Shown piece by piece: positions 22,895-58,191 of a stretch of 64,000 nt of DNA; positions within the stretch are counted from its first letter, which is position 1; each line of letters opens with the position of its first letter. This stretch comes from Candidatus Eiseniibacteriota bacterium. GTDB lineage: Bacteria; Eisenbacteria; RBG-16-71-46. The stretch spans positions 1,984,001 to 2,048,000 of the forward strand of contig OY970342.1 in NCBI GenBank assembly GCA_963717505.1, written 5' to 3'. Made by a program: the position numbers and the translations under genes. Under the pieces are notes generated by a model. That model was given only the letters and a program-made list of their open reading frames with translations. It made no database searches and was not told the DNA's origin.

Positions 22895-22903
22895 TTATCC
22901 ACA
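22895..22903 (+). promoter_or_regulatory. Perfect consensus DnaA box (TTATCCACA), single copy
   Basis: aaagTTATCCACAtcg, intergenic, overlapping the left edge of repeat copy 1; function unproven. Confidence 0.4.
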
Positions 22904-22965
22904 TCGACTCGTTCTGGAGCGAGTTGCGTTAGGCAGGACTAACGCAACTTGCCTTGCGGCAAGTG
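22899..22965. repeat. Dispersed palindromic 11/12/11/6 element, copy 1
   Basis: ccacatcgact-CGTTCTGGAGCG-agttgcgttag-GCAGGA-ctaacgcaact-TGCCTTGCGGCA-agtg. Confidence 0.9.
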
Positions 22966-22981
22966 AGCAAAGCGTTCAGCC

Positions 22982-24028
22982 CTAAGGCTTGCGCACCAGC
23001 GTGTAGGTCGCGAACAGGTCCTTCTCGAGATTCATGGGTTGTTCGCCCTGGTCCCAGCCCAGCGCGTGGCCCATCGCCCGCGCCGCGGGTGAGTCGTCGC
23101 GATCGAACTCGATCACCCGGAAGCCGGCCGACTCCCACAACGCGCGCGGAAACGGGCAACGCCCGTCGGCCCACGGCTTGTACTGCTGGCCGGGCGGACT
23201 CGGCGCCGGCGCCAGGTTGTAGATCATCACGAAGCCGCCGGGTTTGACGATCGACGCGAGCGTGCGCACGTAGGTGGTGTCGTCGACGCCCAGATGCACC
23301 AGCATTCTCGGGTTCACCGGTTGCGCCGGATGGATGTAGCCGTTCTTGAGCGTGTTCTTCGAGATGAACAAGTCCAAATTGCGCCCGACCTGGCGCGCGA
23401 TCGACGTGTCGCCAGGGAAACTTCCGGTCACCAGCGTGACGCGGCCGGACTTGCCACCCGCGCCGCTCACCGGGCCTTGATCGCCCGGCTGGCTGTAGAG
23501 CTTGGCCAGCAATAGATCGACGTCGATGCCGGTCGCATCGGCTCCGAGTGCGGCCAGCAGTTTCAAATGGCCGATCGTGCCGTAGCCGTAGTCGGCGATC
23601 CGCCGGCCGGCGACGTCGGTGAATCCGGCTTTCGACAGGATCTCGAGCGCGCGCACGTAGGCGAGCGGCGTGCCGTACCGGGTCATGTAGTAGAAACCCT
23701 CGTCGAGCGTGCGCGTGACCAACCGAGCGCGAATGGTATCGGGCAAGGTCGCGGCTTCTTCCGAGGTCCAGTAGCGCGTACGAGCCGAGTCGTGGAGCAC
23801 CGTGCGCGGGGCGACATTCTTCAGTGTGGTGGTCGCGTCGAGAAAGGCGCGGGCGAGCTGCGTGGTCACCAGAGGCCGGAGGCTGTCGGCCTCGGCTCGG
23901 ATCTCGCCGACGACCGTGGTGTCGGCCGGGGCAGCCGCGGACCGGGCGGCGCCAAGCACGATGACAAGTGCTGTGATGCCTACGGCTTCGACGGCCGGGA
24001 GTCGGAAGGGCTTCACGGGCGCGATCAT
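22982..24028 (-). CDS. Hypothetical exported protein with a SAM-methyltransferase-like motif
   Basis: Signal-like segment AVGITALVIVLGAARSAAA; RIADYGYG, ATGIDVD, LDLFIS, VKPGGFVMIY; start uncertain. Confidence 0.6.
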   Translation of the reverse strand: MIAPVKPFRLPAVEAVGITALVIVLGAARSAAAPADTTVVGEIRAEADSLRPLVTTQLARAFLDATTTLKNVAPRTVLHDSARTRYWTSEEAATLPDTIRARLVTRTLDEGFYYMTRYGTPLAYVRALEILSKAGFTDVAGRRIADYGYGTIGHLKLLAALGADATGIDVDLLLAKLYSQPGDQGPVSGAGGKSGRVTLVTGSFPGDTSIARQVGRNLDLFISKNTLKNGYIHPAQPVNPRMLVHLGVDDTTYVRTLASIVKPGGFVMIYNLAPAPSPPGQQYKPWADGRCPFPRALWESAGFRVIEFDRDDSPAARAMGHALGWDQGEQPMNLEKDLFATYTLVRKP

Positions 24029-24182
24029 AGGCAGACAGAAGTAAATTCCCCGGATGAATCGGACGAGCGCGGTGATAGACTTTACCGCGTCGAGACTGCA
24101 CGGCTGTGTCTCCCCGCCAGCCACACCCGGTCGGGCCGTCTGCGCCGCGCCGCAACGTCGGCCCGAGATGTTGGAGGGCCCC

Positions 24183-25901
24183 GTGAAAACCCTTCTCGCG
24201 ATCATGCTGCTACTGTCCCCCGCCGTGTCGTTCGCCGGTTGGGGTCCCGATCCCGTCCCGGTGGTTTCAACTACTGACGCCATCCCGCTGGTCGAAGCAT
24301 GTACCGACGGCGAGTACGGGACCTTCGTCGCGTGGCAGCAGGGAGCGACGTCGTCCACCTGCGTCCTACGCGTTCTTCACGTGTTGCCGACCGGTGACCT
24401 CGACCCGGCCTGGCCCGCGACGGGGGCCGTGGTCTGCAACGTCCAGGTCTCTCGAAGCCTGCTCGGTGTTCTACCGGATCGCCTGGGCGGCCTCTTTGTC
24501 TGGTGGCTCGAAGGCTCGCAGCTCTTCCTGACCCGAATGGAAGGCGGTGCTGTCGCGACCGGGTGGCCAGCACGGGGCCGGTTGATTGGCATCGTTTACC
24601 AGGCGAACGGGCAACCCTGCGCCATCGAAGACGGCGCGAACGGAGTGTACCTGGCGTGGCCGGCAGAGAACGCGTTCGAACTGGATCCTTATCGACTGCT
24701 CGCGATTCACCTGGGTCCGACCAACCAGGGGGCCGGTGGATGGCCAAACGGACCGCGCGCGATCAGTAGCGTGCACGACCTGGCAACGATGGACCTCTGG
24801 CCCCGGCTGGCACTAGCTCCCGATGGCGGGATCTTCGCGGCTTATGCGATTTGCAGCCAAGACACCTCCGTGGTTCCGAATCGGTGGCACTTGTCGCGTC
24901 GCACACCCGCCGGCCTGACATCTCCCGGCTGGGCGGCCGAGGGGCTCGAGTTCGGACCCTTTGACTGCGAGCAAATGACGACCACGCTCGAGAGCTTGGT
25001 GGATGTTGCTCAGGACGGTCGTGGCGGCGTCTTCGTCGTGGCCGCGACGTCCGTGCGCAACGAGGGTGGCGTGTCCTGGGCGGCGCCGACGGTCTATCGC
25101 CGGCTCGGCGACGGGAGCACGGCACCCGATTGGCCCGAGGCCGGCCGCCAGTTTGGTCTATATGACGAGATCATGCTCGTCGCGCATCCCGAGGCTGGAT
25201 TCCTCGTGCACCCGGACGGGCGCGACGGGGTCATCGTCGGCAACGTCGTACCCTACGATCACATTGTGGACTACGGCTTTAGCACCATGGATCAGAATGG
25301 TGCCTGGTCCTTGTCATCGGCAATCGAAGGCAAACTCGGAGGGCTCGAGCACGTGTCCAACGAGCGCGGTGGGCTCTATGTCGCCGACTTCAATCCTAAC
25401 GGGCCGACCGGGATCTTCACTCCCAACGCTTTCATCCGCGTGAGCCAATCGGGGCCGTCCGTTCCATGGGGCGAGTACCACGACGAACCGTTCCAGCAGT
25501 GGTACGGAGACATCGGGTTGGCCCAGACCGGTGACGGGGGAGCCGTGTTCTTCTGGTCTCAGACGCACGAGCGTTTCGGGCTCTTCGCCCGGCGTTTCGG
25601 CCCCAACGGCCAAACGACCGCCGTCGACGAACGCCCCCAGGTCGCACGGCTTCGCGGCCTCAAGTGGGTTCGTGGCGCGGGAATTCAAGGCGCGGTCAGC
25701 CTGGAGCCAGGAACTGCGGGGCGCATCGAGGTGTTCGACGTCCTCGGCCGCCGGCTCGCGGATCATCGCCTCGACGGCGCCGGGGCGGGCGAGCAGTCCT
25801 TCACCATCGCGGGTACTGCCGGGCTCCGGTCCGGGCTGGTTGTCGTTCGTGTCTCCCAACGCGATTGGGCGGCCCTGGCCAAAGTCTTCATCGCTCGCTG
25901 A
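24183..25901 (+). CDS. Secreted beta-propeller-like repeat protein with degenerate FlgD/T9SS-like CTD
   Basis: GTG after GGAGG; KTLLAIMLLLSPAVSFA signal peptide; about 8 DGxGG-hydrophobic-W repeats; EVFDVLGRRL...SGLVVVRV...KVFIAR. Confidence 0.7.
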   Translation: MKTLLAIMLLLSPAVSFAGWGPDPVPVVSTTDAIPLVEACTDGEYGTFVAWQQGATSSTCVLRVLHVLPTGDLDPAWPATGAVVCNVQVSRSLLGVLPDRLGGLFVWWLEGSQLFLTRMEGGAVATGWPARGRLIGIVYQANGQPCAIEDGANGVYLAWPAENAFELDPYRLLAIHLGPTNQGAGGWPNGPRAISSVHDLATMDLWPRLALAPDGGIFAAYAICSQDTSVVPNRWHLSRRTPAGLTSPGWAAEGLEFGPFDCEQMTTTLESLVDVAQDGRGGVFVVAATSVRNEGGVSWAAPTVYRRLGDGSTAPDWPEAGRQFGLYDEIMLVAHPEAGFLVHPDGRDGVIVGNVVPYDHIVDYGFSTMDQNGAWSLSSAIEGKLGGLEHVSNERGGLYVADFNPNGPTGIFTPNAFIRVSQSGPSVPWGEYHDEPFQQWYGDIGLAQTGDGGAVFFWSQTHERFGLFARRFGPNGQTTAVDERPQVARLRGLKWVRGAGIQGAVSLEPGTAGRIEVFDVLGRRLADHRLDGAGAGEQSFTIAGTAGLRSGLVVVRVSQRDWAALAKVFIAR

Positions 25902-25904
25902 CTC

Positions 25905-25933
25905 TTGACGGCCCGGAACGTGCCTCGTAGCCT
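25905..25933 (+). promoter_or_regulatory. Sigma70-type promoter candidate for the mutase operon
   Basis: TTGACG-N17-TAGCCT, about 55 bp upstream of the ATG at 25987. Confidence 0.6.
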
Positions 25934-25986
25934 CATTGGGTTCCGGCGCATCCCGTCGCGGCCGATACCCTACTGAAGGAGTGCTC

Positions 25987-27760
25987 ATGGCCACCCGTTC
26001 GCCCGCCTCTCGACGTCGCACGCATGCTCGACCGCGCCCGACTCCGCGCGTGACCGACCGTGCTCGCGCCGGGCGGAACGGCGGCTCGGCTTCGGCCAAC
26101 GGTGTACCCAGCCCCGCGCGGAAGGACTACGACCAGCGATACGCGGACTCGCGCGAGCGCAAGGATCTCTACCCATTCACGATTTCCGGCGTCCCGATCA
26201 AACCGCTCTACACCGCCGAAGACCTGAAGGGCCTCGACCTCGAGCGCGACCTCGGCTACCCCGGCGCCTTTCCCTACACGCGCGGCATCCACTCGACCAT
26301 GTACCGCGGGCGCATGTTCACCATGCGCCAGTTCGCGGGCTTCGGGCTCGCCAAGGAATCCAACGAGCGCTATCACTACCTGCTCGCCCACGGGCAGACC
26401 GGCCTGTCGATCGCCTTCGACAACCCGACGATCATGGGCTACGACAGCGACCATCCGAAGGCCCACGGCGAGGTCGGCAAGTGCGGCGTCGCGGTCGACT
26501 CGCTGCGCGACATGGAGGTGCTGCTCGACGGCATCGACCCGGGAGTGATCTCGACGTCGATGACCATCAACGGCCCAGCGGCGACCATGTTCGGCTTCTA
26601 CCTGGCCAACGCCGAGAAGCGCGGCACGCCGTTCTCCAAGCTGCGCGGGACCCTGCAGAACGACATCCTGAAGGAGTACATCGCGCAGAAGTGCTGGTGT
26701 TTCCCGCCGCGGCCGTCGCTGCGCATCATCGTCGACCTGATCGAGTTCGCGACCAAGCACGTGCCCCAGTGGAACACGATCTCGGTGTCCGGCTATCACA
26801 TCCGCGAGGCCGGCTCGACCGCGGGCCAGGAGCTGGCGTTCACGCTCGCCGACGGCTTCACCTACGTCGAGGAGTGCCTGAAGCGCGGACTCGACATCGA
26901 CGAATTCGCGCCGCGCCTGAGCTTCTTCTGGAACAGCCATCTCGACTTCTTCGAGGAGATCGCCAAGCTGCGCGCCGCGCGCCGCATCTGGGCGCGCCAC
27001 ATGCGCGAGCGCTACAAGGCCAAGAACCCGCAGTCGTGGCTGATGCGCTTCCACACGCAGACGGCCGGCTGCTCGCTGTGGGACAAGCAGCCCGAGAACA
27101 ACATCGTGCGCACCGCGTTCCAGGCGCTGGCCGCGGTGCTGGGCGGCACCCAGTCGCTGCACACCAACTCGATGGACGAGACCATCGCGCTGCCGAGCGA
27201 CAAGGCGGTCAAGATCGCGCTCCGCACGCAGCAGGTCATTGCCCACGAGCTGGGCGTCACCGAGACCGCCGACCCGCTCGCCGGCTCGTATTACCTGGAA
27301 TCTTTGACCAACACGTTGGAAGAACAGGCTGCGCACTATTTCAAACAGATCGAGGCGATGGGCGGGGTCGTCGCCGGTATCGAGCAGGGCTTCTTCCAGC
27401 GCGAGATCGGCCGCGCCGCCTACCAGTACCAGCAGGAGATCGAGCGCAAGCAGCGCGTCCTGGTCGGCATCAACGAATACGTCGAGCCCGACGAGAAGCT
27501 CGAGATCCCGATCCTGTACATCGGTGAGGAAGCCGAGGAGGATCAGACGGCGCAATCTCGAGGAGCTGCGGCGCACACGCGACAACAAGGCGTGCAACTC
27601 GGCGCTCAAGGCGCTGACCGCGGCCGCCGCCAGCGCTCCCGGTGAGCAGAACGTCATGGCCCGCATTCTCGACGCGGCGCGCGCCTACGCCACCGAAGGC
27701 GAGATCCGGAACGCCATGCGCGAAGTGTTCGGCGACTACGTCGAGAGCGCCGAGTTCTAG
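25987..27760 (+). CDS. icmA: B12-dependent acyl-CoA mutase large subunit, isobutyryl-CoA mutase (IcmA) type; apparent frameshift near 27548
   Basis: [16 protein letters not shown] (Phe), [12 protein letters not shown] (Gln), [25 protein letters not shown]; C-terminus [19 protein letters not shown] in a shifted frame. Confidence 0.8.
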
Positions 27761-27788
27761 ACCGGCGCCCGCGAGGAACACACCTTTC

Positions 27789-28367
27789 ATGTCGCCCGTC
27801 ATGACCACGATTCTCCTGCTCGTTCTGGTGGGAGTCGTGGCCCTGGTCGTCAAGTGGTTCACGCAGGAAGCCGCGGAAGACTCGTCGCCCGGGAGCCCGG
27901 GAGAGCGGCCGGCCGCGGAGGCGGTCGACCAGCTGCTGGCCGAGGCCCAGGATCTCGATCCCGGCGACGTCGCCGACATGATCGCGGTCGACTCCGAAGG
28001 CATGGCGTTCGTCCCCGACGGCGACAACGTCCTACTGATCCCGCCGCCCGAGGCGGGGGAGGTGACGCCGGCGCGGCAGCACGCACACCATATCGACCGC
28101 GGCGACCTGATCGGCGTGCGCGTGGTGCGTGGAGCCCCTGACTTCGACCCCTGGCGGCTCGAGGCGCTGGGCCGCGACTTCGAGTACCGCGCCTGGTTCT
28201 TCGAGACCGAGGACGCGGCGGACGCCGCCCGCGACGTGCTCGAGCGCCGCGTGGTGGTTCCCCCGCGCGACGAGTACGACGAACCCAAGCCGCCTTCGGC
28301 CCGCGATTTCGACGAGGCCCGCAGGCGCGACGAAGAGACCGAGCACGCGCTGGACTCTGCGGAATAG
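27789..28367 (+). CDS. Hypothetical protein, N-terminal TM helix, acidic
   Basis: [19 protein letters not shown]; host-like codon usage; fills the gap between mutase subunits. Confidence 0.7.
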
Positions 28368-28441
28368 CCCGGCGGCGTGCGTCCGGCGCGGCTGCCCGCT
28401 ATAGTCCCGTCCTCTCAGCCGCAGGACCCACGAGGAAACTC

Positions 28442-29026
28442 ATGCCGCGCAAGATCCGCGTATTGGTCGGCAAACCCGGCCTCGACGGCCACGACCGTGG
28501 CGCCAAAGTCGTCGCCGCGGCACTCCGCGACGCCGGAATGGAAGTGATCTACACCGGACTTCATCAGACGGCCGAGCAAGTGGTGGAAGCCGCACTTCAA
28601 GAGGACGTCGATGTCGTGGCGCTCTCGATCCTCTCCGGCGCGCACATGACCTTGTTCCCCGAGATCAACAGGCTGATGCGTGCCCGCGGACTTTCCGATC
28701 GCCTGCTCACCGGCGGCGGCATCATTCCGGCCGAGGACATGGACACGCTGGCGACCATGGGCGTCGGCCGCTTGTTCGGTCCGGGTTCGTCGACCCAGGA
28801 CATCGTCGCCTACATCCGCGCGTGGTTCGCCACCCAGCACGGCGCCGATGCGCTCACGCCGTTGCCGCCGCCCCGCGACCCGCAGAGCTTCGTGCCGGCG
28901 GGATCGAGCCCCGCCAAGTCCGTGGCGAAGGTGAAATCCGCGGCCAAGGTGAAATCGGCGGCGAAGAAGAAGTCGGCGCCGAAGCGGAAGCCGGCGGCGA
29001 AGAAGAAAGCCGCGAGACGCCGCTAG
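28442..29026 (+). CDS. Acyl-CoA mutase small (cobalamin-binding) subunit with Lys/Ala-rich C-terminal tail
   Basis: [13 protein letters not shown] (DxHxxG), [28 protein letters not shown]. Confidence 0.93.
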
Positions 29027-29033
29027 GGCCGTC

Positions 29034-29645
29034 ATGACCGAGACGCCCCGCCTGCTGGTGGCGCTCAACGGCAGCCCGGTGCGCGGCAGCAGCGTGGACC
29101 TCCTGCTCGCCGCGGCCTGCGAAGGCGCCGATGCCGTGGGCGCCCGCGTGAATCACGTGCGCTGCAACGACCTCCTGATCAAACCGTGTCAGGCGTGCGG
29201 CCCCGAGCCCACGACCGGGTACTGCATCTTTCACGACGACATGGACCCGGTCTACGAAGCCCTGCGCGACGCCCACGCGGTGATCGTCGGCTCGCCGATC
29301 TACTTTGACACCGTGAGCGCCCAGCTCAAACTTGTCATGGACCGGTGCAATTGCATCACGCCACTGGTGCGGACGCCGGAAGGGGGTTACGATTTTCGCC
29401 CGCTGTGGCCACGCACGCGTCGCGCTGCGTTCGTCACCGCGTGCAGCAGCCGACACCGCTACGATCTGGCCGAGCGCAGCGTCCGCGGCTTCCTCAAGTG
29501 GATCGGCGCGCGCTGGGAGGAGACCCTGGCATGGCAGCACGAGGACAACGACCCCGGCAGCGTGCGCGCAAAGCCCGAGTTGATCGAGAGGGCACGGGCG
29601 CTCGGGCGGCGGCTGATCGAGAGCGCACCACTGGTTCCGTCGTGA
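29034..29645 (+). CDS. Flavodoxin family / iron-sulfur flavoprotein
   Basis: NGSPVRG, CQAC...C..HDDM, VGSPIYF, QLKLVMDRC. Confidence 0.85.
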   Translation: MTETPRLLVALNGSPVRGSSVDLLLAAACEGADAVGARVNHVRCNDLLIKPCQACGPEPTTGYCIFHDDMDPVYEALRDAHAVIVGSPIYFDTVSAQLKLVMDRCNCITPLVRTPEGGYDFRPLWPRTRRAAFVTACSSRHRYDLAERSVRGFLKWIGARWEETLAWQHEDNDPGSVRAKPELIERARALGRRLIESAPLVPS

Positions 29646-30300
29646 CCGGCATGCTTCTCGTGCTGCTGGGCGCGTCGGTCGCCCTCGCGAGTTCCGAGCC
29701 TGCCAGCGAGCCGCAGCCGCCGGGAGCGCCCCAGTTCGCGATCCTCGAATCCATCACCGGTGCTCCCGGTGATTCGCTCGCGCAGCGCCGGTTCCACGAC
29801 GTGGTCCGTGGCGTGTTCCTCGAGCGCACCTTCGCCACCGAGCGCGAGACGCGACCGGGTCGCTACGAGGTTTCGATCCCGATCAACAACCGATTCGTGC
29901 TGCTCGAGGGCTCGGGCGGGCCGACCGATCCGCCCGCCTACCGCGTGCAGCTGTCGCTCGAGTGGCTGCCGGCCGGGCCGGGAACGCCGGCCAAGTCGTC
30001 GACCAAGAACTCGACTGCCGCCACGAAGCCCCGCCGCCGCCGCGCGCCCTGGTGAGCGTTTTCGCCCTGCCGCCGGGCGTCGATCCCGCGATCGTTCGCA
30101 TCGCCCCGGCCAGCGACACCGTGAGCTTCTTGGCGCCGGCATCTCCGGCCGACTCCATGGCGACTTCCGTGGCCCGCAATTCGGCTCTGCTCGCGCTCGA
30201 GCACCTTCATCACCTGGACGGCGAATTGCCCGAGGAGGAGCGGCTACGCACGGATCGCGCATCGAGGTCGAGTGCCGTCACCCCGATGCGCCGCGAATAG
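29642..30300 (+). CDS. Hypothetical exported protein, probably frameshifted near 30035
   Basis: Signal-like MLLVLLGASVALAS; coding-like frame to about 30030, then RALVSVFALPPG...LALEHLHH in another frame to 30300. Confidence 0.5.
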
Positions 30301-30357
30301 GGTTTACCACTCGGGCCTCGGTCCTGTAGAGTCGTCGGTTCACACATGGCCATGCCT

Positions 30358-31503: not shown

Positions 31504-31507
31504 GACG

Positions 31508-43259: not shown

Positions 43260-43580
43260 CTAGGTCTGGCGCGGTCTCCAGCGATACCTCTCGATCGCGA
43301 CTCGCCCTTTGCGATCGAACTTCACGCCCTCGGCTTCGAGCAGCCCTCGTTGCAGCGGCTCATCACCAGGGTCCGCGCGTCGGCTGACTTCGCCCTTCGC
43401 GTTGATCACGCGGTGCCAAGGCAGGCTCACTCCCTTTGGAGTTGCCGCCAGCGCGTATCCGACCTGCCGTGGGCCTGACGCGTCGGCGAGACTGGCGATC
43501 TGCCCGTAGGTGGCAACCCGGCCGCGAGGAATGCGTCGGATGACCGCGTAGATCCGTGAGTAAGTACTATTCGGTGTCAT
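43260..43580 (-). CDS. ybaZ: Alkyltransferase-like protein (MGMT family, YbaZ/Atl1 type)
   Basis: IPRGRVATYGQIA, RQVGYAL, LPWHRVIN (Trp replaces the catalytic Cys), QRGLLEAEGV. Confidence 0.88.
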   Translation of the reverse strand: MTPNSTYSRIYAVIRRIPRGRVATYGQIASLADASGPRQVGYALAATPKGVSLPWHRVINAKGEVSRRADPGDEPLQRGLLEAEGVKFDRKGRVAIERYRWRPRQT

Positions 43581-43594: not shown

Positions 43595-43696
43595 TTACAT
43601 GCCCCGGGGCATGTAACGTTAGGGTCGACTAAGACAACTCGTTCCAGAACGAGTTGCATTAGGGCTGCCTAACACAACTGGCCCCGGGGCCAGTTA
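43595..43696. repeat. Dispersed palindromic 11/12/11/6 element, copy 2 (extended, two 11-6-11 cores)
   Basis: ttaca-TGCCCCGGGGCA-tgtaacgttag-GGTCGA-ctaagacaact-CGTTCCAGAACG-agttgcattag-GGCTGC-ctaacacaact-GGCCCCGGGGCC-agtta. Confidence 0.92.
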
Positions 43697-44434
43697 CCTG
43701 CACGGCTCGATCGAATACTCCTCGTGCCCGCGCTCGAGCTGGCAGCGGAAAGCGTAGGTCGCGGTTTCGAGTTTCCAGCGCCCGCGCGGATCTCGCCTGA
43801 GCCTCAAGCGATAGCGCTCGCCGCGGACCGAGTCGTCCATCAGCCCGTCGCGAGTGACGGTGACCTCCGCGTCGTCGAACCTCTCGGGCTGTGACTGGAC
43901 GTCCACGGTGAACCCGGAGCACTGGCAATCGGCGCCCACCAGGGTGAGCGCCACGAGCGTGGCCGAACGCGCCCACGCGGAGTCGCTGGCGGCGGACAGC
44001 CGGGCTCGGAACGCGGCGGTCGGCACGATGCGCTCCGTGTACGCCGGAACATTGGCCGGTTTGGAATCAGGCGGGAAGTACACGGGCATCGCGGCCCACA
44101 CCGGCTGCAGGCGGTCTTCGATGTACGGTGGCTTGAATTCCCATGCCGCGACCGCTTCACGCGCGGCCTCGTCGAGGCCGGGCACCGACTCGGCAACGCG
44201 AGTCTCGCGCACTCGACCGTGGGTCCCGATCAGCGCGAGAACCACCACGCGGCCCTTGATGCCACTTCGAACTGCGGCGTCAGGGTATTGCGGGGCCACC
44301 AGGTGGATGACTGCGGGCGGGTCCTGCACGAAAAGATAACCGTCCAGGCGGGTTGCGGTCGAGCTGGTGTCGGCGCTCCCTTGGGCCGTCACATGAAATC
44401 CGGCCAGGAACAATGCGCACAGCCAGAGCCTCAT
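43694..44434 (-). CDS. TonB C-terminal domain protein with an additional C-terminal domain
   Basis: Signal peptide; PQYPDAA...GRVVVLALIGTHGRV...LDEAAREAVAAWEFKP; then DGLMDDSVRGERYRL...FRCQ..RG. Confidence 0.75.
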   Translation of the reverse strand: MRLWLCALFLAGFHVTAQGSADTSSTATRLDGYLFVQDPPAVIHLVAPQYPDAAVRSGIKGRVVVLALIGTHGRVRETRVAESVPGLDEAAREAVAAWEFKPPYIEDRLQPVWAAMPVYFPPDSKPANVPAYTERIVPTAAFRARLSAASDSAWARSATLVALTLVGADCQCSGFTVDVQSQPERFDDAEVTVTRDGLMDDSVRGERYRLRLRRDPRGRWKLETATYAFRCQLERGHEEYSIEPCR

Positions 44435-44868
44435 GGCTTCCTCCTCTCGCACAGTTCGACCAGCACGCCGCCGAGGCTCTTTGGATGCAGGAACGCCACC
44501 CGTGTCCCGTGGGCGCCCGCACGAGACTCGGCGTCGATTGCCTGGACGCCGGCCGCCTGGACCGCGGCAAGTGTCTTCGCGATGTCACTGACTTCCAGGC
44601 TCACATGATGAAGTCCGGGCCCACGCTTCTCGAGGAACTTCGCGACCGTGTGGTCCGGCGAACGCGGCTCGAGCAGCTCGATCGTGACCGGGCCCAAATG
44701 CAGGAAGACGACGCGCAGTTCGCCGCCGTCCAAAATCTCTTCTTCGCCGCGCACCGCTCCGAGGGCGCCAACGAGCACGTTCACCAGCGCATCGGCATCG
44801 CGAACCGCGATCGCGATGTGCGCGAGGCCGGTCACCGGACCCGAGGCGCCCGCCGGCCGGGAACTCAT
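44431..44868 (-). CDS. mce: Methylmalonyl-CoA epimerase
   Basis: [48 protein letters not shown]. Confidence 0.93.
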
Positions 44869-48522: not shown

Positions 48523-48523
48523 G

Positions 48524-49736: not shown

Positions 49737-49757
49737 ACCGCGGGCTTCCGCCCGCCC

Positions 49758-50980
<1,223 letters not shown>

Positions 50981-51031
50981 AACGCCCGGCCGCGCCGGGC
51001 GCTCGAGTCACACTAAAAGGAGAATGCACTG

Positions 51032-51346
51032 ATGGATGCGTTCGCACAGGGCGGAGCCGCAGCACCGGCCAATTCCGGAATCGCCATGGTGGTCCAGTTC
51101 CTGCCGATCATCGCGATCATGGTCATCATGTACTTCCTGATCATCCGTCCGCAGCAGCAGAAGCAAAAGCAGGCGGACGCGATGCTCAAGGCCCTGAAGA
51201 AGGGGGACAGGGTGCTGACCAGCGGCGGCATTCTCGCCACCGTCGTCGGCATCGACGACGCGCACGCGGTGCTCAAGATCGCCGACGACACCAAGGTAGA
51301 GTTCATGAAGTCGGCGATCGTCCAGGTGCTGCCGGAGTCGAAGTGA
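51032..51346 (+). CDS. yajC: Preprotein translocase subunit YajC
   Basis: YFLIIRPQQ, LKKGDRVLTSGGI; follows tgt. Confidence 0.93.
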   Translation: MDAFAQGGAAAPANSGIAMVVQFLPIIAIMVIMYFLIIRPQQQKQKQADAMLKALKKGDRVLTSGGILATVVGIDDAHAVLKIADDTKVEFMKSAIVQVLPESK

Positions 51347-51401
51347 TGTCAATTGATGTCAGACCGGCCGCATGCGCCGGGATCTCGGAGGCGTGCGGCT
51401 G

Positions 51402-51953
51402 ATGGCGTTGCGCCCGGTACGTATTTACGGCGATCCGGTGCTGCGCGAGAAGTCGCAGCCGGTGACGTCGTTCGACGACGAGTTGCGTCGCCTGGTCGCC
51501 GATTTGTACGAGACGATGAGGGCCTACGACGGCGCGGGACTCGCCGCACCCCAGGTCGGCGTGCCGCTGCGCCTGTTCGTGGTCGACGTACCGGTGGAGG
51601 ACGGCACCCGTACTCGGATGGCGATCGCGAACCCGGTGCTCTCGGAGCGCTCGGGCGACGACACCGCGGAAGAGGGGTGCCTGTCGATGCCCGGGGTCTA
51701 TGAAGACGTGACGCGCTCGGCGTCGGTCACGGTGCGCGGGGTCGACGAGCACGGGAAGCCGGTCGAGGTCATAGCCGAGGGCTTTCTCGCGCGTGCGCTC
51801 CAGCACGAGTCCGATCATCTGGACGGCGTGCTGTTCGTCGATCGCCTGTCACCGCTCAAGCGCCAGTTTCTCAAGCGCCAACTCGCGGCCCTCGCGCGCG
51901 GCGAGGTGCCCGAGGGTTACCACCCGGTGGCGGGAGGGGCGGAGCCGATTTGA
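51402..51953 (+). CDS. def: Peptide deformylase
   Basis: YGDPVLR, GAGLAAPQVG, EGCLSMP, QHESDHLDG. Confidence 0.95.
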   Translation: MALRPVRIYGDPVLREKSQPVTSFDDELRRLVADLYETMRAYDGAGLAAPQVGVPLRLFVVDVPVEDGTRTRMAIANPVLSERSGDDTAEEGCLSMPGVYEDVTRSASVTVRGVDEHGKPVEVIAEGFLARALQHESDHLDGVLFVDRLSPLKRQFLKRQLAALARGEVPEGYHPVAGGAEPI

Positions 51954-52939
51954 GCCGAGACGGCGGCGGGGAGAGACCCCGAGTGGTGTTCATGGGCACA
52001 CCGTCGTTCGCCGTGCCGTCGTTGCGCGAGGTGGCCCGGCGCTGCGAGGTGCTGGCGGTGGTGACCCGGCCGGACCGGCCGAAGGGCCGGGGCCGGCGGG
52101 TGGAATCGTCGGAAGTGGCGGTGGTGGCCGAGGAATTGAGGCTGGAATTGCTCAAAACAGAAACCATGAAATCCGAGACCCTGAGTGCCGAAATCAAAGA
52201 GCGAGCCCCGGACCTGTTCGCGGTGGTTGCGTTCGGGGCGATATTGCCGCCCGAGTGGTTGCGTGTCCCGCGCCTCGGAGCGATCAACCTCCACGGCTCG
52301 CTGCTCCCTGACTATCGGGGCGCCTCCCCGGTGCAGCGGGCGCTGATGGACGGACGCTCGGCGACCGGCGTGACCACGATCTGGATGGACGAAGGGATCG
52401 ATACCGGCGACCGGATCCTGCAGCGCTGGGAGCCGATCGCCGCCGACGACACCGCGGCGACGCTCGGCGATCGACTCGCGAAAGTCGGCGCACCGTTGTT
52501 GGCCGAAAGCCTGGTGCGCGCAGCACGGGGCACCGCGCCGCGAATTCCGCAGCCGGCGGGCGCCGGCAGCTACGCGCCGCGCCTGCGCAAGCAGGACGGA
52601 TGGGTGGACTGGACGTCGCCGGCCGACTCGGTGTGGAACCGCCAGCGGGGAGTGACGCCATGGCCCGGAGCCACGACGTCGTTCGCGGGCCGCGGAGTTC
52701 AGATCACCAAGAGCTGGCCCAACGACGTGATGTCGAATGATGCCGAGCCGGGGACCGTGCTCGAGGTGAGCACCGACGGCGTGCGCGTCGCGTGCGGACA
52801 GGGTTCTTTGACGCTGGTCGCGATCAAGCCCGAGGGCAGGGGCGAACTCAAGGCAGTGGAATGGGCGCGTGGCGCGCGAATCGCGCCCGGAATGCGCTTC
52901 GAGGCCGTGACACGAGGACCGCAAGAGGAGGAAGTTTGA
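51950..52939 (+). CDS. fmt: Methionyl-tRNA formyltransferase
   Basis: VFMGTPSFAV, PDRPKGRG, NLHGSLLPDYRGASP, DTGD, PWPGA. Confidence 0.95.
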   Translation: MSRDGGGERPRVVFMGTPSFAVPSLREVARRCEVLAVVTRPDRPKGRGRRVESSEVAVVAEELRLELLKTETMKSETLSAEIKERAPDLFAVVAFGAILPPEWLRVPRLGAINLHGSLLPDYRGASPVQRALMDGRSATGVTTIWMDEGIDTGDRILQRWEPIAADDTAATLGDRLAKVGAPLLAESLVRAARGTAPRIPQPAGAGSYAPRLRKQDGWVDWTSPADSVWNRQRGVTPWPGATTSFAGRGVQITKSWPNDVMSNDAEPGTVLEVSTDGVRVACGQGSLTLVAIKPEGRGELKAVEWARGARIAPGMRFEAVTRGPQEEEV

Positions 52940-54720
52940 GCGAGGAACGTTCGTTCGAGGGGGGAACCCCGGGCGGCGCGCCGCAGCGCCGTCGTGGCCG
53001 ATTCCAGCGCCGCCGCCGTGAAGGCCCGCCGCCGGAACGCCGCCGTGATGGCCCACCGCCGGAATACCGCCGCGAAGGCCCGCCTCCCGATCGAGGCCAG
53101 GCGGGGGCGGTGAATCGATCGCGGCCGCTCTACCCCGAAGCGGGCAACGGTGCCGCGCGGCGTGGACCTTCGTACGGTCCGCGCGGCAACGGCGCCGGCC
53201 GCCAGGGTGGCATGCGCGGCCCGAGTGCCGGCCGACAGGGTGGACCCCGCGGCCCCGCAAATCGGTCGGGTGGCATGCGCGGTCCGGGGCGCGGCAACGG
53301 CCGATACGACCGTGGACCCCGCGATGCCGATCGTCGCCCCGGCAACGGCGGAGTGCGCGAATCACGCCCGTTCTTCGCCGACGAGGATGAAGCGCTGCCC
53401 GACAACCCGCGCGAAGCAGCACTCCAGATCCTGCACGCGGTCGAAACCCGCGGCGCCTTCGGTGACCGATTGCTGGACGGCGCCCACGCGCGCGCCGGCT
53501 GGGACGATCGCGATCAGGCGTTGCTGCACGAGCTGGTGAAGGGCGGACTGCGCTGGCGCGGGCGTCTGGACTACGTGCTCGACCCGTTCGTGCACGTCGG
53601 GCTCGACAAGCTGCAGCCGTGGATCCGCAATGTGCTACGACTCGGCGCGTACCAAATCCTGTTCCTGGATCGCGTGCCCGAGCACGCGGCGGTCGACGAG
53701 TCGGTCAAGCTCGCGCACAAGTACGGCCACCCGGGACTCGCCGGACTGGTGAACAGCGTGCTGCGCCGCCTGATCGACGAGAAGGCGCAGATCGTGATCC
53801 CCGAGGGCGACGATGTCGCTTCGCTCTCGGCATGGGGATCGCACCCCGAGTGGATCGTCGAGCGCTGGCTCGAACGCTTCGGTGTCGAGGCGACACGCGC
53901 GCTGCTCCAGGCCGACAATCGTCCGGTGCCGGTGGGCTTGCGGGTCAACGCCGTGCGGGGAACACGCGAGCAGCTGATCGAGCGACTCAAGAATGAAGGC
54001 GTCGAGGCGCGGCCCGCGACCATGTCGCCCGACCTGGTCTGGGTCGAGACGCACCAGTCACCGGGCCGCCTCAAGGCGTTCCGCGAGGGTTGGTGTACGG
54101 CGCAAGACGAGAGCGAATCGCTGGTGGCCAGGCTGGTCGGACCCCGGCAGCACGAGCGGTTGCTCGACCTGTGCGCGGCTCCCGGCGGCAAGTGCACGCA
54201 CCTGGCCGAGCTGATGGGAGACGAGGGCGAGGTGTGGGCGATGGAGCGCGACGCCGCGCGCGTGACCTCGCTCGAGCAGACCATCACGCGGCTCGGCATC
54301 CACAGCATTCACGTGGTCCACGGTGACGGGCGCAATTACGCGTTCCCGATGCCGTTCGACCGCGTGCTGGTCGACGCGCCGTGCTCGGGTCTGGGCGTGC
54401 TCGGCCGACGCGCGGACGCGCGCTGGCGCAAGGGTCCCGAGATCCTGCGCGAGATGCCGCCGATTCAGCTCGATCTCCTGAATGCCGCGGCGAAGCGGCT
54501 GCGCCCGGGTGGCGTGCTGGTCTACAGCGTGTGCTCGTTCGAGCCCGAGGAAACGGCGATCGTGGTCGAGCGCTTCCTGCGCGCGAACCCGTCGTTCGTC
54601 ATTGAAGCGGCAGAAGGATTGCTGCCGGACGAAGTGGTCACGGAGGATGGGTTCATGCTCGTGCTGCCGCACGTGCACGGCTGCGACGGCGCGTTCGCGG
54701 CTCGGCTGCGCAAGGCCTGA
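52936..54720 (+). CDS. rsmB: 16S rRNA m5C967 methyltransferase RsmB with long Arg/Gly/Pro-rich N-terminal extension
   Basis: NusB-like domain (LRLGAYQILFLDRVP.HAAVDESV), SHPEW, DLCAAPGGK, DAPCSGLG, YSVCS, DGAFAA; TTG start after GAGGAGG. Confidence 0.93.
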   Translation: MSEERSFEGGTPGGAPQRRRGRFQRRRREGPPPERRRDGPPPEYRREGPPPDRGQAGAVNRSRPLYPEAGNGAARRGPSYGPRGNGAGRQGGMRGPSAGRQGGPRGPANRSGGMRGPGRGNGRYDRGPRDADRRPGNGGVRESRPFFADEDEALPDNPREAALQILHAVETRGAFGDRLLDGAHARAGWDDRDQALLHELVKGGLRWRGRLDYVLDPFVHVGLDKLQPWIRNVLRLGAYQILFLDRVPEHAAVDESVKLAHKYGHPGLAGLVNSVLRRLIDEKAQIVIPEGDDVASLSAWGSHPEWIVERWLERFGVEATRALLQADNRPVPVGLRVNAVRGTREQLIERLKNEGVEARPATMSPDLVWVETHQSPGRLKAFREGWCTAQDESESLVARLVGPRQHERLLDLCAAPGGKCTHLAELMGDEGEVWAMERDAARVTSLEQTITRLGIHSIHVVHGDGRNYAFPMPFDRVLVDAPCSGLGVLGRRADARWRKGPEILREMPPIQLDLLNAAAKRLRPGGVLVYSVCSFEPEETAIVVERFLRANPSFVIEAAEGLLPDEVVTEDGFMLVLPHVHGCDGAFAARLRKA

Positions 54721-54726
54721 CGAGCG

Positions 54727-55617
54727 ATGAATCCAACCGGACCGGCCCCCGGTCCCGATCCCCTGGATACGTTCGATCCTGCCGTGGGCGCCACGTCCGC
54801 GGGGCCGCGCGGCATCGACATCGTCGGCGAAGACGCCGAGCGCCGCGGCGAGTCGTCGACCCCCGGGCGGATCGATCGTCCGCCGCCGCCGCGCCGGCCG
54901 CTGATCGCAACCCTCGCTCTGTTTGGCATGGGGCTCGTGGCGTTCGTCATCGGGCTCCTGGTGTTCAACCACGTGGTGATGCCGCGGCTGATCCACAGCA
55001 CCGGTACCACCCAGGTGCCCGACGTGACCAACATGACCTACGAACAGGCCGAGGTCGCGCTCAAGCCGCTGGGCATGCCGCTGTCGCGCGCCGGCGAACG
55101 CTTCGACCCCAACGTGCCGCGCGGCTTCGTGCTGTCGCAGGATCCGCTGCCCAACACACCGGTGCGGGGCAAGAAGCGCGTGATGGTGGTGGTCAGCCTG
55201 GGCGAGGAGTTCAGCTCGGTGCCCGGCCTGTTCGGCGAGTCGGTGCGCAGTGCGCGCTACCTGCTCCAGCGCTCGGGCTTGAGAGTGAGCGGCATCACGC
55301 GCGCGCCGTCGCAGGAAGTCGGCGTCGGGTTGGTGGCCGGTACCGATCCACCCGCCGAGATCGTGCTGCCGCGCTTCGGCACCGTGTCGCTCTTGATCTC
55401 GACCGGTGGCGGCGACGAAGCCTGGGTCATGCCCGACCTGCTCGGGCGCGAGATCACGAACGCCCGGCGCCAGCTCGAGTCGTTCGGCTTTCGCGTGGTG
55501 ACGCCGCCGGCAGCGCCCACCGTCGGGCCGATCGTCTACCAAGACCCGCCCCCGGGGTCGCGCATCACGCTCGATACGGAGATCAGCCTTCAGGGCATGG
55601 GCCGGGTGATCCGGTGA
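54727..55617 (+). CDS. Membrane-anchored triple PASTA domain protein (no kinase domain)
   Basis: One TM helix, then VPDVTNM, VPGLFGE and MPDLLGR repeats, each with QDP/TDP. Confidence 0.88.
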   Translation: MNPTGPAPGPDPLDTFDPAVGATSAGPRGIDIVGEDAERRGESSTPGRIDRPPPPRRPLIATLALFGMGLVAFVIGLLVFNHVVMPRLIHSTGTTQVPDVTNMTYEQAEVALKPLGMPLSRAGERFDPNVPRGFVLSQDPLPNTPVRGKKRVMVVVSLGEEFSSVPGLFGESVRSARYLLQRSGLRVSGITRAPSQEVGVGLVAGTDPPAEIVLPRFGTVSLLISTGGGDEAWVMPDLLGREITNARRQLESFGFRVVTPPAAPTVGPIVYQDPPPGSRITLDTEISLQGMGRVIR

Positions 55618-56363
55618 CGGAATACCCGTTGACGCCGCCGATCATCGCGCCCTCGATCTTGTCCGCCGACTTCTCGATGTTGCCGGAAGAAGTGGCGATC
55701 GTCGATCCCAAGCGCGACTGGGTCCACTGCGACGTCATGGACCACCACTTCGTGCCGAACCTGACGTTCGGTCCGTTGGTCGTGGGGGGTGTGCGGCGAT
55801 TGACCACGGCATTCGTCGACGTCCACCTGATGATCGAGCGGCCATGGGACCTCGCTGCTGCGTTTCGCGACGCCGGCGCTGACCAGATCACGATTCATCT
55901 CGAGGCCTGCCGGCCCGAGGATCAGCCGCTACGCGAGTTCGACCCGAAGCGCGTTGAGGCCGACCGCGTGATCAAAGCACTCGCCGCGGTTCGCGAAACC
56001 GGCGCCAGGGTCGGGCTGGCGCTGAAGCCGGCCACGCCGTTCGCCGCGGCGGTGCCGTTTCTAGAGCTGGTGGACCTGGTGCTGATAATGACCGTCGAGC
56101 CCGGCTTCGGCGGGCAGTCGTTCATGACCGACATGCTGGACAAGGTTCGCGAGGCGGCCGCGTGGAAGCGCAAGCACGGTGCCCAGTGGCTGATCGAGGT
56201 CGACGGCGGGATCACGGCCGAGACGATCGTTCCCTGCCGCGCCGCGGGGGCGGAGGTGTTCGTCGCCGGGAATGCTGTGTACCGGGAGGTGACCGCTCCA
56301 CGCGCGGCGCTGGCCTCATTGCGGAAGTCCGTGCGTTCAAGCGAGCCGGCATCAAGGTCTTGA
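55614..56363 (+). CDS. rpe: Ribulose-phosphate 3-epimerase
   Basis: IAPSILSADF, HCDVMDHHFVPNLTFG, DVHLMI, MTVEPGFGGQ, EVDGGI. Confidence 0.95.
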   Translation: MTEYPLTPPIIAPSILSADFSMLPEEVAIVDPKRDWVHCDVMDHHFVPNLTFGPLVVGGVRRLTTAFVDVHLMIERPWDLAAAFRDAGADQITIHLEACRPEDQPLREFDPKRVEADRVIKALAAVRETGARVGLALKPATPFAAAVPFLELVDLVLIMTVEPGFGGQSFMTDMLDKVREAAAWKRKHGAQWLIEVDGGITAETIVPCRAAGAEVFVAGNAVYREVTAPRAALASLRKSVRSSEPASRS

Positions 56364-56468
56364 GGGAAAGTTCGAGAGAGCAAAATGGTTGTTGATCTGT
56401 TCACATGCACACTGGCAGTGACGGGCGGGAGCTTCAGCACGCGCCTTCGCGCCGAGGCAATCTGAAAC

Positions 56469-58118
56469 GTGGATGCGAAACGGGTTGTCTCCGTCGGGGC
56501 CGGGGTGGCCCTGTTGACCTGGTTGGTCTCTCATGCCAACGCGGGCGTCTTCAGGCCAAGAGTCGACTACCACGTGGCGGGCGATCCTTGGGCAGCGACC
56601 ATTGTGGATCCGAACCACGACGGCTCTCCCGATATCATGGTGACGCAGCATCGGACAGCCTTCTTTACGATCGACTCAAAAATCATGGTGATGGCCAACG
56701 ACCACGAGGGAGGTCTAACGCCCACGTCCAGCCTCCCTGCGATCGAGTACGGCGGATACCTGACCAGCGCCGACTTCAACGTCGATGGCCGCCTCGATGT
56801 TGCAGTCGTCACCACCAGCGATTCCGTTCAGATCATGCTGAACAATGCTGATGGCACATGGTCAACGACGCGGTTCCGCGAGCCCGGGGACCTAATTTTT
56901 GTCCGAGCAAGAGACCTCACCGGCGACGGGTTTCCCGACCTTGTGGCCGCCAATCGCTCCAGCCACAGGGTGCAAGTGTTTGCAAACGATGGTGCAGGGG
57001 GCTTCTCCCTGTGGCGAAACCTCAACGTCGTCGGGTCACCCACCGGACTTGCGATCCTTCACATCAACAGCGACGGCATTCCTGACATCGCGGTTAGCGT
57101 AGTTACTACGACCATGAGCATCCTCGTAAGCCGCGGCTTAGGCGACTACGAACGCAGGACCAGTCCGATGCCGGGATTTCAATCCCATGTCGAGGCTGCT
57201 GATCTGGATCACGATGGCGACGACGATCTCATCATGGGCCAAGGCAGCAGCATATTGATGTTGCGAAACAACGGCGACGAGACCTTTGGCCCACCGGTTG
57301 CGACGCAGGTTCCGAGCGGGGTTACGCGGCACGCCATGCTGGATTTCGATCAAGACGGCTGGGTAGACGTCGCAGCGGCATCAGCGGGATCTGAAGTAAT
57401 AACCTTGCTCCGAAACGTCGGAGGGAACCTGGTGCGTGGAGAGGATCTGCCGAGTGGAGTCATATACAACGGCCCACAAGTTGCGGACCTGGATGGGAAT
57501 GGCTACCCAGACCTGATTGGCTGCCGGGTCGAAGATGACACGGTCTCGGTGTGGATGAACGCCAACGGACCGACGACGGCGGTGCTTCTTGAGGCCGTTG
57601 ACTACACGATTGTCGACGAGGGCATCCGGCTGATATGGACGCTGGGTGGAGGATGTCCGAGCAGCGTCGGGACGGTAGAGCGACGAGACCACGTCTTGGG
57701 GACTTGGGAACCGCGAGGGAGTATCTCGGCCATCGGATCGCGGGTCGAGTATGTCGACCATGCTGCTGTCGCCGGGGAGCCGTATGCGTATCGGCTCGTC
57801 ACCGAGCGCTGCGGGATCTTGGGAGAAGTCTGGATCGACTGGGGCATTGGCTCACTGAATCTGCGCGCCGAGATCCGGCCCAATCCCGCAATCGGACGTT
57901 TCAATCTCGTGTTCGATCTTCCTCTCAGTGCCGCTGCCAACCTCGAATTGTGGGACGTCCAGGGACGACGAGTCGAGACCCGTGATCTCGGCGATCTCGG
58001 CCCCGGGCGACACAGCATTGCATTGGGGGAGGGAGCCCGGCTGGCGCCGGGCGTCTACTTGGTTCGTTTGATTCAGGGGAGCCGCGTGTTCACCACCAGG
58101 GCCTGCCTCGTCGAATGA
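56469..58118 (+). CDS. Secreted FG-GAP/VCBS repeat protein with FlgD/T9SS-like CTD
   Basis: Signal peptide; 7 D-x-N/D-x-DG-x-x-D-like repeats (DPNHDGSPD, DFNVDGRLD, DLTGDGFPD, INSDGIPD, DLDHDGDDD, DFDQDGWVD, DLDGNGYPD); PNP...WDVQGRRV...GVYLVRL; visibly lower GC. Confidence 0.85.
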   Translation: MDAKRVVSVGAGVALLTWLVSHANAGVFRPRVDYHVAGDPWAATIVDPNHDGSPDIMVTQHRTAFFTIDSKIMVMANDHEGGLTPTSSLPAIEYGGYLTSADFNVDGRLDVAVVTTSDSVQIMLNNADGTWSTTRFREPGDLIFVRARDLTGDGFPDLVAANRSSHRVQVFANDGAGGFSLWRNLNVVGSPTGLAILHINSDGIPDIAVSVVTTTMSILVSRGLGDYERRTSPMPGFQSHVEAADLDHDGDDDLIMGQGSSILMLRNNGDETFGPPVATQVPSGVTRHAMLDFDQDGWVDVAAASAGSEVITLLRNVGGNLVRGEDLPSGVIYNGPQVADLDGNGYPDLIGCRVEDDTVSVWMNANGPTTAVLLEAVDYTIVDEGIRLIWTLGGGCPSSVGTVERRDHVLGTWEPRGSISAIGSRVEYVDHAAVAGEPYAYRLVTERCGILGEVWIDWGIGSLNLRAEIRPNPAIGRFNLVFDLPLSAAANLELWDVQGRRVETRDLGDLGPGRHSIALGEGARLAPGVYLVRLIQGSRVFTTRACLVE

Positions 58119-58124
58119 CGACGC

Positions 58125-58191
58125 TCAATACAACTCGTTCTGGAACGAGTTGCGTTAGGGCCACCTAACGCAACTGTCCGCACGGACAGTT
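58125..58191. repeat. Dispersed palindromic 11/12/11/6 element, copy 3
   Basis: tcaatacaact-CGTTCTGGAACG-agttgcgttag-GGCCAC-ctaacgcaact-GTCCGCACGGAC-agtt. Confidence 0.92.

Follow-up and report, generated by a model that had tools for sequence, protein, structure and literature searches.

Palindromic arrays in the window

The window, a stretch of 64,000 nucleotides (G000:C1:1984001-2048000, on the single 4.16-Mb contig, 67.7% G+C, of the window's own genome, G000), comes from a Candidatus Eiseniibacteriota bacterium and contains three short intergenic loci made of palindromes. An earlier note had described these loci as a dispersed element with a 40-bp period, an 11-6-11 core and variable 12-bp hairpins. 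Here we consider them together with seven HNH nuclease genes of the same genome (p776, p1724, p2174, p2424, p3016, p3216 and p3967), which carry palindromes of the same kind within their coding sequence and which may encode the proteins that recognize them. Alignment of the copies resolved the loci into arrays of abutting 20-bp palindromes, without gaps, in which a variable unit named S (AACT-N12-AGTT) alternates with a conserved unit named C (GC-GTTAG-N6-CTAAC-GC). The layout is S-C-S at loci 1 and 3, and S-C'-S-C-S at locus 2, C' being a degenerate C. The 40-bp period exists because S(20), C(20) and S(20) follow one another without a spacer; the former 12-bp hairpins are the inner portion of S, and the former core, minus its outer AGTT/AACT, is C. 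A wider consensus for S is AACT/AACA-N12-AGTT/TGTT, often palindromic across 22-24 bp.

Locus 1 opens with a 12-nt tail on the minus strand, GATGTGGATAAC (22894..22905), which abuts an S unit of the CG(C/T)TC..GA(A/G)CG type with the frame GACT-N12-AGTT (22906..22925); the best match of this unit to an HNH gene is to the repeat array of p2174, over 25 nt at 96%. The C unit GC-GTTAG-GCAGGA-CTAAC-GC (22926..22945) joins it to an S of the TGCC..GGCA type (22946..22965), a stem also found in linkers of the genome's own HNH genes, with a 23-nt match to p3967. Locus 2 starts with TACATGCC-CCGG-GGCATGTA (43596..43615), which is identical to the linker palindromes of p2424 over 23/23 nt and of p3016 over 22/22. 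It continues with C' (43616..43635, AC-GTTAG-GGTCGA-CTAAG-AC), the S unit AACTCGTTC-CA-GAACGAGTT (43636..43655, 23 nt at 95.7% to the p2174 array) and a C unit reading GC-ATTAG-GGCTGC-CTAAC-AC (43656..43675), and ends with AACTGGCC-CCGG-GGCCAGTT (43676..43695), the sole S type of the window without a matching HNH linker in the genome. Locus 3 consists of AACTCGTTC-TG-GAACGAGTT (58132..58151), a C unit reading GC-GTTAG-GGCCAC-CTAAC-GC (58152..58171) and AACTGTCC-GCAC-GGACAGTT (58172..58191), which has the stem type of paralog p3216.

Sequences, coordinates and geometry of the three loci agreed with the earlier description. Within the window, the pattern AGTTGCRTTAG-N6-CTAACRCAACT was found, at up to 3 mismatches, at these three loci only, and it was never found in 100 dinucleotide shuffles. 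In the whole genome, at up to 2 mismatches, it was found at 5 loci, against 0 for the reversed control pattern. Genome-wide, GTTAG and CTAAC faced each other six times at a spacing of 6, and not once at each of the 14 other spacings between 0 and 14. A covariance model of one C-S module, run on the whole genome, returned 13 full modules with scores of 42-58 bits. They are spread over eight loci, at 752k, 826k, 902k, 2006k, 2027k, 2042k, 2779k and 4101k. This bears out the proposal of a dispersed family under selection with fixed geometry. The shared polarity proposed for it holds within the window and fails genome-wide, since at 4101764-4101830 the CG(C/T)TC..GA(A/G)CG unit stands to the right of C.

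In 17 aligned modules, 91.8% of the pairing cells were complementary, compared with 80.5% after shuffling, and none of 500 shuffles scored as high. Six of the eight pairs of the S helix showed two-sided changes, and one-sided changes (G-U type) were absent. The claim that the 12-bp flanks stay self-complementary while their sequence changes is thus upheld, and is refined to 20-bp units. Of the C stem, the four inner GTTAG/CTAAC pairs did not vary across the same modules, and the 6-bp C spacers differed from module to module. Genome-wide we counted 14 perfect AACT stems and 17 perfect AAC..GTT hairpins, and a covariance model of S only returned 15 distinct S sites in G000 at E<=0.01. No homology among the loci was found beyond ~20-53 nt. 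Searched against Rfam, the window had no match at gathering score, and the three loci and seven HNH loci had none even at E<=0.1.

The 12-nt tail, or a close variant of it, follows S in some copies: at 826k (826660-826671), at 2006k, as a variant at 752k, and in the relative G024 (L008). It includes a 9-mer which we take to fit the DnaA-box consensus. Three perfect copies of this 9-mer exist in the genome, two in array tails (locus 1 and 826660-826671) and one at 1160622, at the GC-skew minimum and likely origin. As a DnaA box the tail is a weak candidate, as the 9-mer had 119 matches at up to 1 mismatch and the reversed control 157. Clusters of two or three S units without a full C were also seen, at G000:C1:3553470-3553565 and 325371-325414, one of them beside a 'GCGCTAAG' fragment; these may be decayed or incipient arrays.

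The C layout, an 11-bp arm, a 6-bp spacer and the inverted 11-bp arm, is that of the XerC/D sites dif and pdif, and its GTTAGG and CCTAAC words resemble attC core and inverse core. Both comparisons had been made in the earlier note. A tyrosine recombinase crossover site, dif/pdif-like or attC-like, would suit an 11-6-11 layout whose GTTAG/CTAAC arms do not vary, and six PF00589 matches are present in the genome. However, these matches lie at 2.36, 3.43, 3.59 (two), 3.60 and 3.92 Mb, and none adjoins an array. C is multi-copy, at eight loci with different spacers, and the window (1.98-2.05 Mb) is mid-replichore, between the skew minimum at ~1.16 Mb and the maximum at ~3.24 Mb, and not at the terminus. 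Moreover, the unit of 28-34 bp is a near-perfect palindrome, and C was found in 2/160 other genomes searched. attC sites are longer and asymmetric, whereas C is short and symmetric, has its words in the wrong order and spacing (6 bp apart), and has no integrase or cassette array adjacent to it. We regard a crossover site of either kind as highly improbable, and the dif/Xer and attC parallels are not retained.

The arrays sit among ordinary genes, and each window locus abuts the 3' end of at least one of them. Locus 1 is between convergent genes, a MeaB-type GTPase gene (21491..22870, plus strand; PF03308, 307.9 bits), whose stop comes 24 nt before the tail, and a gene without Pfam match (22982..24358, minus strand). 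Loci 2 and 3 are between tandem genes. Locus 2 is flanked by the gene of a methylguanine-methyltransferase-type DNA-binding domain protein (43260..43580, minus strand; PF01035, 79.6 bits) and by a TonB C-terminal domain gene (43694..44452, minus strand; PF03544, 56.3 bits), whose stop overlaps the last bases of the array. Locus 3 is flanked by an FG-GAP repeat protein gene (56469..58118, plus strand), which ends 13 nt before the array, and by ffh (SRP54; 58300..59628, plus strand; PF00448, 231 bits), which starts 109 nt after it.

Such positions at gene ends, convergent or tandem, raise the question of structural repeats like the repetitive extragenic palindromes (REPs) and the bacterial interspersed mosaic elements (BIMEs). 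The arrays would then function as hairpins of DNA or RNA (stabilisers of mRNA 3' ends, terminators, gyrase or supercoiling sites), and the HNH linkers would resemble them only because both descend from a hairpin able to insert at tolerant sites. When folded as single-stranded DNA, the window loci indeed form three successive, stable hairpins on both strands (z of -2.2 to -5.0), and the strong stem covariation is also what such repeats would show. BIMEs are alternating mosaics of REP palindromes, and the S/C arrays are alike in clustering. REPs are described as palindromes of 20-40 bp downstream of open reading frames (ORFs); many form pairs of opposite orientation, and some are intragenic (PMC3733652). 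The 20-bp S and C units share this size and the downstream placement. Both kinds of repeat are short, dispersed palindromes that sit mainly past the ends of genes, and both are tied to an enzyme gene of their own genome.

Several features depart from this pattern, however. No unpaired GTAG/CGTC tag is present in the 17 aligned modules, where S starts with AACT/AACA and the C arms read GCGTTAG. The copies are few, with 8 arrays and 15 S sites at E<=0.01, in the tens and not in the hundreds. T-tract terminators were found in 0/3 elements, the one site of the scan (58046-58063) being inside the upstream gene, and Rfam, as said, returned nothing. The enzymes of REPs are the REP-associated tyrosine transposases (RAYTs), of HUH/Y1 type, whereas the enzyme proposed here has helix-turn-helix (HTH), ribbon-helix-helix (RHH) and HNH domains, and here the palindrome is within the coding sequence instead of flanking the gene. 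The sole PF01797 match of the genome, at 1412470-1412808, has no S or C in the 2.1 kb around it, which leaves the HUH/RAYT candidate of the earlier note unsupported. Finally, structural repeats would leave unexplained the covariation of S positions 4-6 with the HTH helix and the frequency of self-complementary centres (88/135), both presented below. We consider this explanation unlikely. The PF01797 match itself (G000:C1:1412470-1412808, minus strand) is the only IS200/Y1_Tnp-type match of the genome, a 162-aa ORF with an HVH motif that adjoins a LexA-like gene.

S palindromes within HNH nuclease genes

The C-S covariance model also matched sites with S only, including 2174586-2174860, which is part of p2174. 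At least eight S units are in frame there, each encoding (E/Q)L(A/V/S)PERV. Their codons end in A or T (GAA, GCT, CCA, CGA, GTT), whereas G+C at third codon positions is 0.78-0.91 in the gene-like ORFs that flank the loci, so what is constrained is the DNA, not the peptide. p2174 lies outside the window (G000:C1:2174127-2175374), and its reading frame has to shift three times, from 0 to 1, then to 2 and back to 0, for it to be read through; the gene is either a pseudogene or the victim of assembly indels. The marker completeness of the genome is 86.7% despite the single contig, which, together with the frameshifted p2174, hints at indel errors in the assembly. Sequencing runs listed for the genome included none of RNA, and six of DNA with small shares.

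All seven nuclease paralogs, ~410-450 aa in length, have at least one S palindrome, located 446-706 nt past the start codon in a poorly conserved linker. The type CG(C/T)TC..GA(A/G)CG is that of p2174, TGCC..GGCA that of p776, p1724 and p3967, GTCC..GGAC that of p3216, and TACATGCC..GGCATGTA that of p2424 and p3016. The window arrays show these linker types and, besides them, the GGCC type, which none of the seven paralogs carries. A conserved 5' leader of ~130 nt upstream of the start codons is also common to the seven genes (e.g. 2173990-2174126); it has a hairpin-like ccaacgg-gtcgg...ccggccg, a conserved 'cgcccccgag' just before the start, and no Rfam match.

Homologous genes were surveyed in the best 80 of 263 related loci, almost all from metagenome-assembled genomes labelled Candidatus Eisenbacteria, the phylum of which the window's genome is thus probably a member. 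A linker hairpin with at least 7/8 stem pairs was present in 74/80 of these genes from other genomes. The linkers (16.0 kb in total) held 73 perfect 8/8 hairpins, whereas the N-domain (31.6 kb) held 3, the C-part (35.7 kb) none and the flanks (305 kb) 27, which makes them ~50-fold enriched in the linkers. The stems are highly diverse among genes, for instance AACTTGCC, AACATGCG, AATCCGTC and AGGTGGTT. The centre is self-complementary in 88/135 linker palindromes (CCGG 72, GCGC 10, CGCG 2, CTAG 2, GTAC 2), so that most linker palindromes are full ones of at least 20 bp. In two loci of G063, a genome of another family in the same class (L143 and L148, on G063:C214 and C187), an S palindrome lies ~280 nt upstream of the HNH match and not in the linker, a position expected of an operator.

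The HNH genes are solitary: across the 80 loci, no neighbour gene family recurred from genome to genome, and 4-locus neighbour clusters came from one genome only. In one Eisenbacteria chromosome record, four HNH paralogs (L030, L036, L037 and L051) have the same ~430-aa opposite-strand ORF upstream, as if the repeated unit of that genome were larger. Being nuclease genes that are solitary, multi-copy and set in variable contexts, the family recalls homing endonuclease genes; those, however, interrupt their recognition site, whereas here the site is intact within the gene.

Arrays and genes correspond in type within a genome. In G000, 16/19 S units outside HNH genes share their inner stem with one of its own HNH linkers. 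In G063, the stems TCGCA and TCGGT of intergenic C-S modules were found, among all linkers collected, only in the HNH loci of that genome, and the same is true of TGGAT in G024. Without such a match are three GGCC-type units of G000 and a single S each of G024 and G110. Within an array, the S units to the left and right of C belong to different paralog types. What arrays and HNH genes share extends over 18-25 nt, the palindrome alone, and includes no flanking coding sequence; the arrays are therefore not gene remnants.

Extragenic S units could still be functionless by-products, either linker patches copied by repair or gene conversion, or decayed gene remains. The identity of their types with those of the resident paralogs would follow directly, and the family is multi-copy with broken copies (p2174, partial matches). 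However, in addition to the short reach of the similarity, extragenic palindromes are mostly perfect, as the 14 AACT stems counted above show, and they keep an exact 20-bp register with C at eight loci. We find this origin improbable.

The nuclease protein and its covariation with S

By their predicted structure, the paralogs have, in order, a putative HTH domain resembling those of ParB/KorB, a disordered linker, an RHH-like segment, an HNH domain and a tail like RuvA domain III. Pfam detected only a weak HNH (PF01844, 25.0 and 24.0 bits for two paralogs and 21.0 for P0001, with a cut-off of 21.4). D293, H294, H316, N317, C274, C284 and C313, which comprise the catalytic His/Asn and the zinc ligands of HNH, are invariant in 40 sequences. 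The anti-phage defence models of PADLOC gave 0 matches. At E<=1e-10, at least 1,806 database proteins match, labelled mostly hypothetical or "McrA".

An AlphaFold2 model based on 40 sequences had a mean predicted local distance difference test (pLDDT) of 79.7 and a confident N-domain, and residues 137-179 were disordered, exactly where the palindrome is encoded. A Foldseek search with the whole model found nothing in the PDB at E<=0.001. Taken by segments, residues 24-137 align with the ParB DNA-binding domain of a ParB-parS structure (6s6h_B: Z 7.5, root-mean-square deviation (rmsd) 3.5, 99 aligned), and with operator-bound KorB and with Spo0J (8qa8_A Z 6.5, 1r71_A Z 6.1, 1vz0_A Z 6.1). Residues 188-245 align with RHH proteins (MazE antitoxin, TraM, NikR; Z ~5), residues 254-325 with the McrA HNH nuclease (Z 6.8), and residues 339-387 with RuvA domain III (7pbp_G: Z 5.8, rmsd 1.8, 29% identity). 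These are likenesses of a predicted model and not memberships. Two copies of the RHH segment were predicted to pair with a score of 0.50, compared with 0.00 for the best of 3 controls; this score was attained by 20/30 solved one-chain pairs and by 1/23 solved single chains. At least 89% of the contacts agreed between runs, with a partner pLDDT of at least 64. The pass may owe to likeness to solved RHH dimers.

Two known groups come close to this protein. The best-aligning domains, those of ParB, KorB and Spo0J, were solved on palindromic sites, and such sites are ~16-24 bp long. Here, by contrast, the domain is fused to a nuclease and to a RuvA-III-like tail, there are many paralogs of differing specificity, no ParB CTPase domain was detected, and Z values are 6-7.5. 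A parS site presumably lies inside the Bacillus subtilis spo0J gene, for which a search for a citable paper found none. DUF222-HNH endonucleases, which include the mycobacterial REP13E12 proteins, resemble the paralogs as multi-copy, solitary genes with an N-terminal helical and a C-terminal HNH domain. The paralogs differ from them in giving no match to the Pfam model PF02720 (DUF222) at E<=0.01, and in having their own palindromic site within the gene, which is unreported in the literature found. PF02720 occurs in 42% and 21% of the members of the nearest Atlas clusters of the N-domain, which is a lead only.

Next to the position of the palindrome, its sequence also varies with that of the protein. 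From 97 complete, non-redundant genes, the 88 with a palindrome in the linker were used to calculate mutual information between all protein columns and S positions 4-8. The top five columns, residues 66, 73, 69, 37 and 70, are all in the N-domain (z 15.5, 14.5, 11.6, 10.6 and 10.4), and tests above z 5 numbered 16/640 in the N-domain versus 7/670 in the C-part. Four of these residues (66, 69, 70 and 73) are in the helix 65-80, which follows the helix 53-60 after a four-residue turn. Helix 65-80 is the putative recognition helix of the HTH in the model. The pairs are simple. At residue 66, Asp goes with G at S position 6 in 74/74 cases, and Gln/Glu/Ser with T in 10/11. At residue 73, Arg goes with G or C at position 5 in 30/31, and Gln with T in 37/45. 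At residue 69, Tyr/Phe goes with T at position 4 in 49/57, and Ala/Ser with A in 12/14. Independent contrasts on a tree made without those columns gave same/opposite values of 5/0, 4.3/0, 4.6/1.0 and 3.5/0.5, the last with 4 unchanged; control columns mostly showed no change.

The earlier note had read the compensatory changes as selection on a folded structure. The covariation it reported is real; the conclusion that hairpins are selected is weakened by the self-complementary centres (88/135) and by the covariation with the recognition helix, which together point to two-fold protein recognition of duplex DNA. A purely structural role, by hairpin or cruciform extrusion, is still conceivable. 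The good folding of the loci would fit it, as would the mostly non-palindromic centres of the window S units, and an HNH/RuvA-III architecture would suit the processing of cruciforms.

Arrays as proposed recognition sites, and their distribution

We propose that the loci are composite arrays of abutting palindromic recognition sites, in which S units are the cognate sites of the multi-copy nuclease family, each member keeping its own S in its linker. From the sequences and the protein model we give this reading a probability of about 55%. Under it, S units are likely to be duplex recognition sites of the HTH domains of the paralogs. A homodimer held by the RHH segments would set two HTH recognition helices on the two half-sites, and the so-called compensatory changes would mark points where a site of two-fold symmetry went over from one paralog's specificity to another's. 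The intragenic S could serve as a self-operator, or as a roadblock ahead of the nuclease-coding half. On extragenic arrays, C would be flanked by the docked dimers of two different paralogs. Nicking or cutting by the HNH domain could take place there, and the RuvA-III-like tail could recruit RuvB, so that the arrays would behave as local recombination or insertion hot spots. The supposition that the loci are served by an enzyme encoded elsewhere finds plausible candidates in these cognate HNH paralogs, and none of the HUH/RAYT or Xer kind first envisaged.

A number of observations weigh against this proposal. The C unit and the tail are left unexplained by paralog docking, and no C unit was found in 537 kb around 110 HNH genes. 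The GGCC-type S is without cognate paralog in the genome, and p2174, which matches the commonest S type of the window, has three apparent frameshifts, real or due to assembly error. In the window, the centre is self-complementary in 2/7 S units and non-palindromic in the rest, which suits hairpins as well as dimer sites. On the protein side, the fold matches all have Z below 8, a range that possibly reflects common arrangement only. The contrasts are few, 5-8 pairs, and single tests never reach p 0.05. Lastly, the N-domain as a whole tracks the S type just slightly better than the nuclease part does: the S type changed often on both trees, 52 times for the N-domain and 57 times for the C-part, as against ~70 times for shuffled labels.

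Beyond the window's own genome, full C units turned up in G024 and G063 alone, in 1/40 relatives searched with the pattern and in 1/120 genomes of the phylum searched with the model. G000, G024 and G063 belong to two families, and their C arms are conserved, a single covarying variant being GTCAG-N6-CTGAC. Sites of the S-only model outside HNH genes made up 11/15 in G000, 13/16 in G063 (where outside means on a contig without HNH match), 1/1 in G013, 0/14 in G012 and 0/4 in G019. By these counts, S has spread beyond the nuclease genes mainly in lineages that have C. The C-S modules of G063 are at places that are not arrays in G000, and the element is absent downstream of the orthologs of the locus-1 gene (22982..24358) in 13 relatives of other genera, where downstream synteny differs too and gives no exact insertion boundary.

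Such a distribution could also be that of a mobile element. C-S, with or without tail, would be an element of ~52-54 bp similar to miniature inverted-repeat transposable elements, carrying S or inserting beside S and moved by some other enzyme, and the link to the HNH genes would be indirect. The occurrence of C-S modules with one and the same C at places that are not orthologous in G000, G024 and G063 (two families), the covarying C, the similarity of some tails, the restriction of common extragenic S to genomes with C, the 13 orthologs without the element, and extra DNA in G024 with a zinc-ribbon ORF between S and S-C, would all agree with it. However, neither target-site duplication nor terminal inverted repeat was seen beyond the palindromes, no transposase is adjacent, and copy number is very low. 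Furthermore, the S of the modules varies by locus and matches the resident HNH paralogs, which is unexpected of simple copy-and-paste. We judge this alternative quite unlikely.

If the arrays are indeed recognition sites of the nuclease paralogs, a further and more tentative step can be taken. The whole may form an 'addressed nuclease' system, an HNH counterpart of REP-RAYT. Paralogs would re-tune three or four residues of the recognition helix while keeping the cognate 20-24-bp palindrome in their linker codons, and C-bearing lineages would seed S-C-S arrays as nuclease-addressed hot spots of recombination or insertion. No published description of such a system, nor of such genes carrying their own palindromic site, was found in a literature search at listing level. 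Were it true, the correspondences between helix and bases would amount to a simple, readable recognition code. A dispersed palindromic repeat would be tied to an HNH nuclease family and not to an HUH transposase, which would widen the range of bacterial enzyme-repeat partnerships, and a very large, unnamed protein family would gain a function. The paralogs would also provide a set of naturally occurring HTH variants whose pairing of residue and base looks simple (Asp-G, Arg-G/C, Gln-T, Tyr/Phe-T), of possible use in engineering. It would further call for caution with compensatory changes in palindromes, which can stem from specificity switches of a protein dimer as well as from selection on hairpins.

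The extra DNA of G024 was seen in a region (L006, G024:C20, 1200-1530) syntenic with the 3.880 Mb region of G000. Where G000 has a spacer of ~40 nt, G024 has ~450 nt more, with a 65-aa zinc-ribbon ORF enclosed between an S and an S-C, and the whole resembles a small cassette bounded by S.

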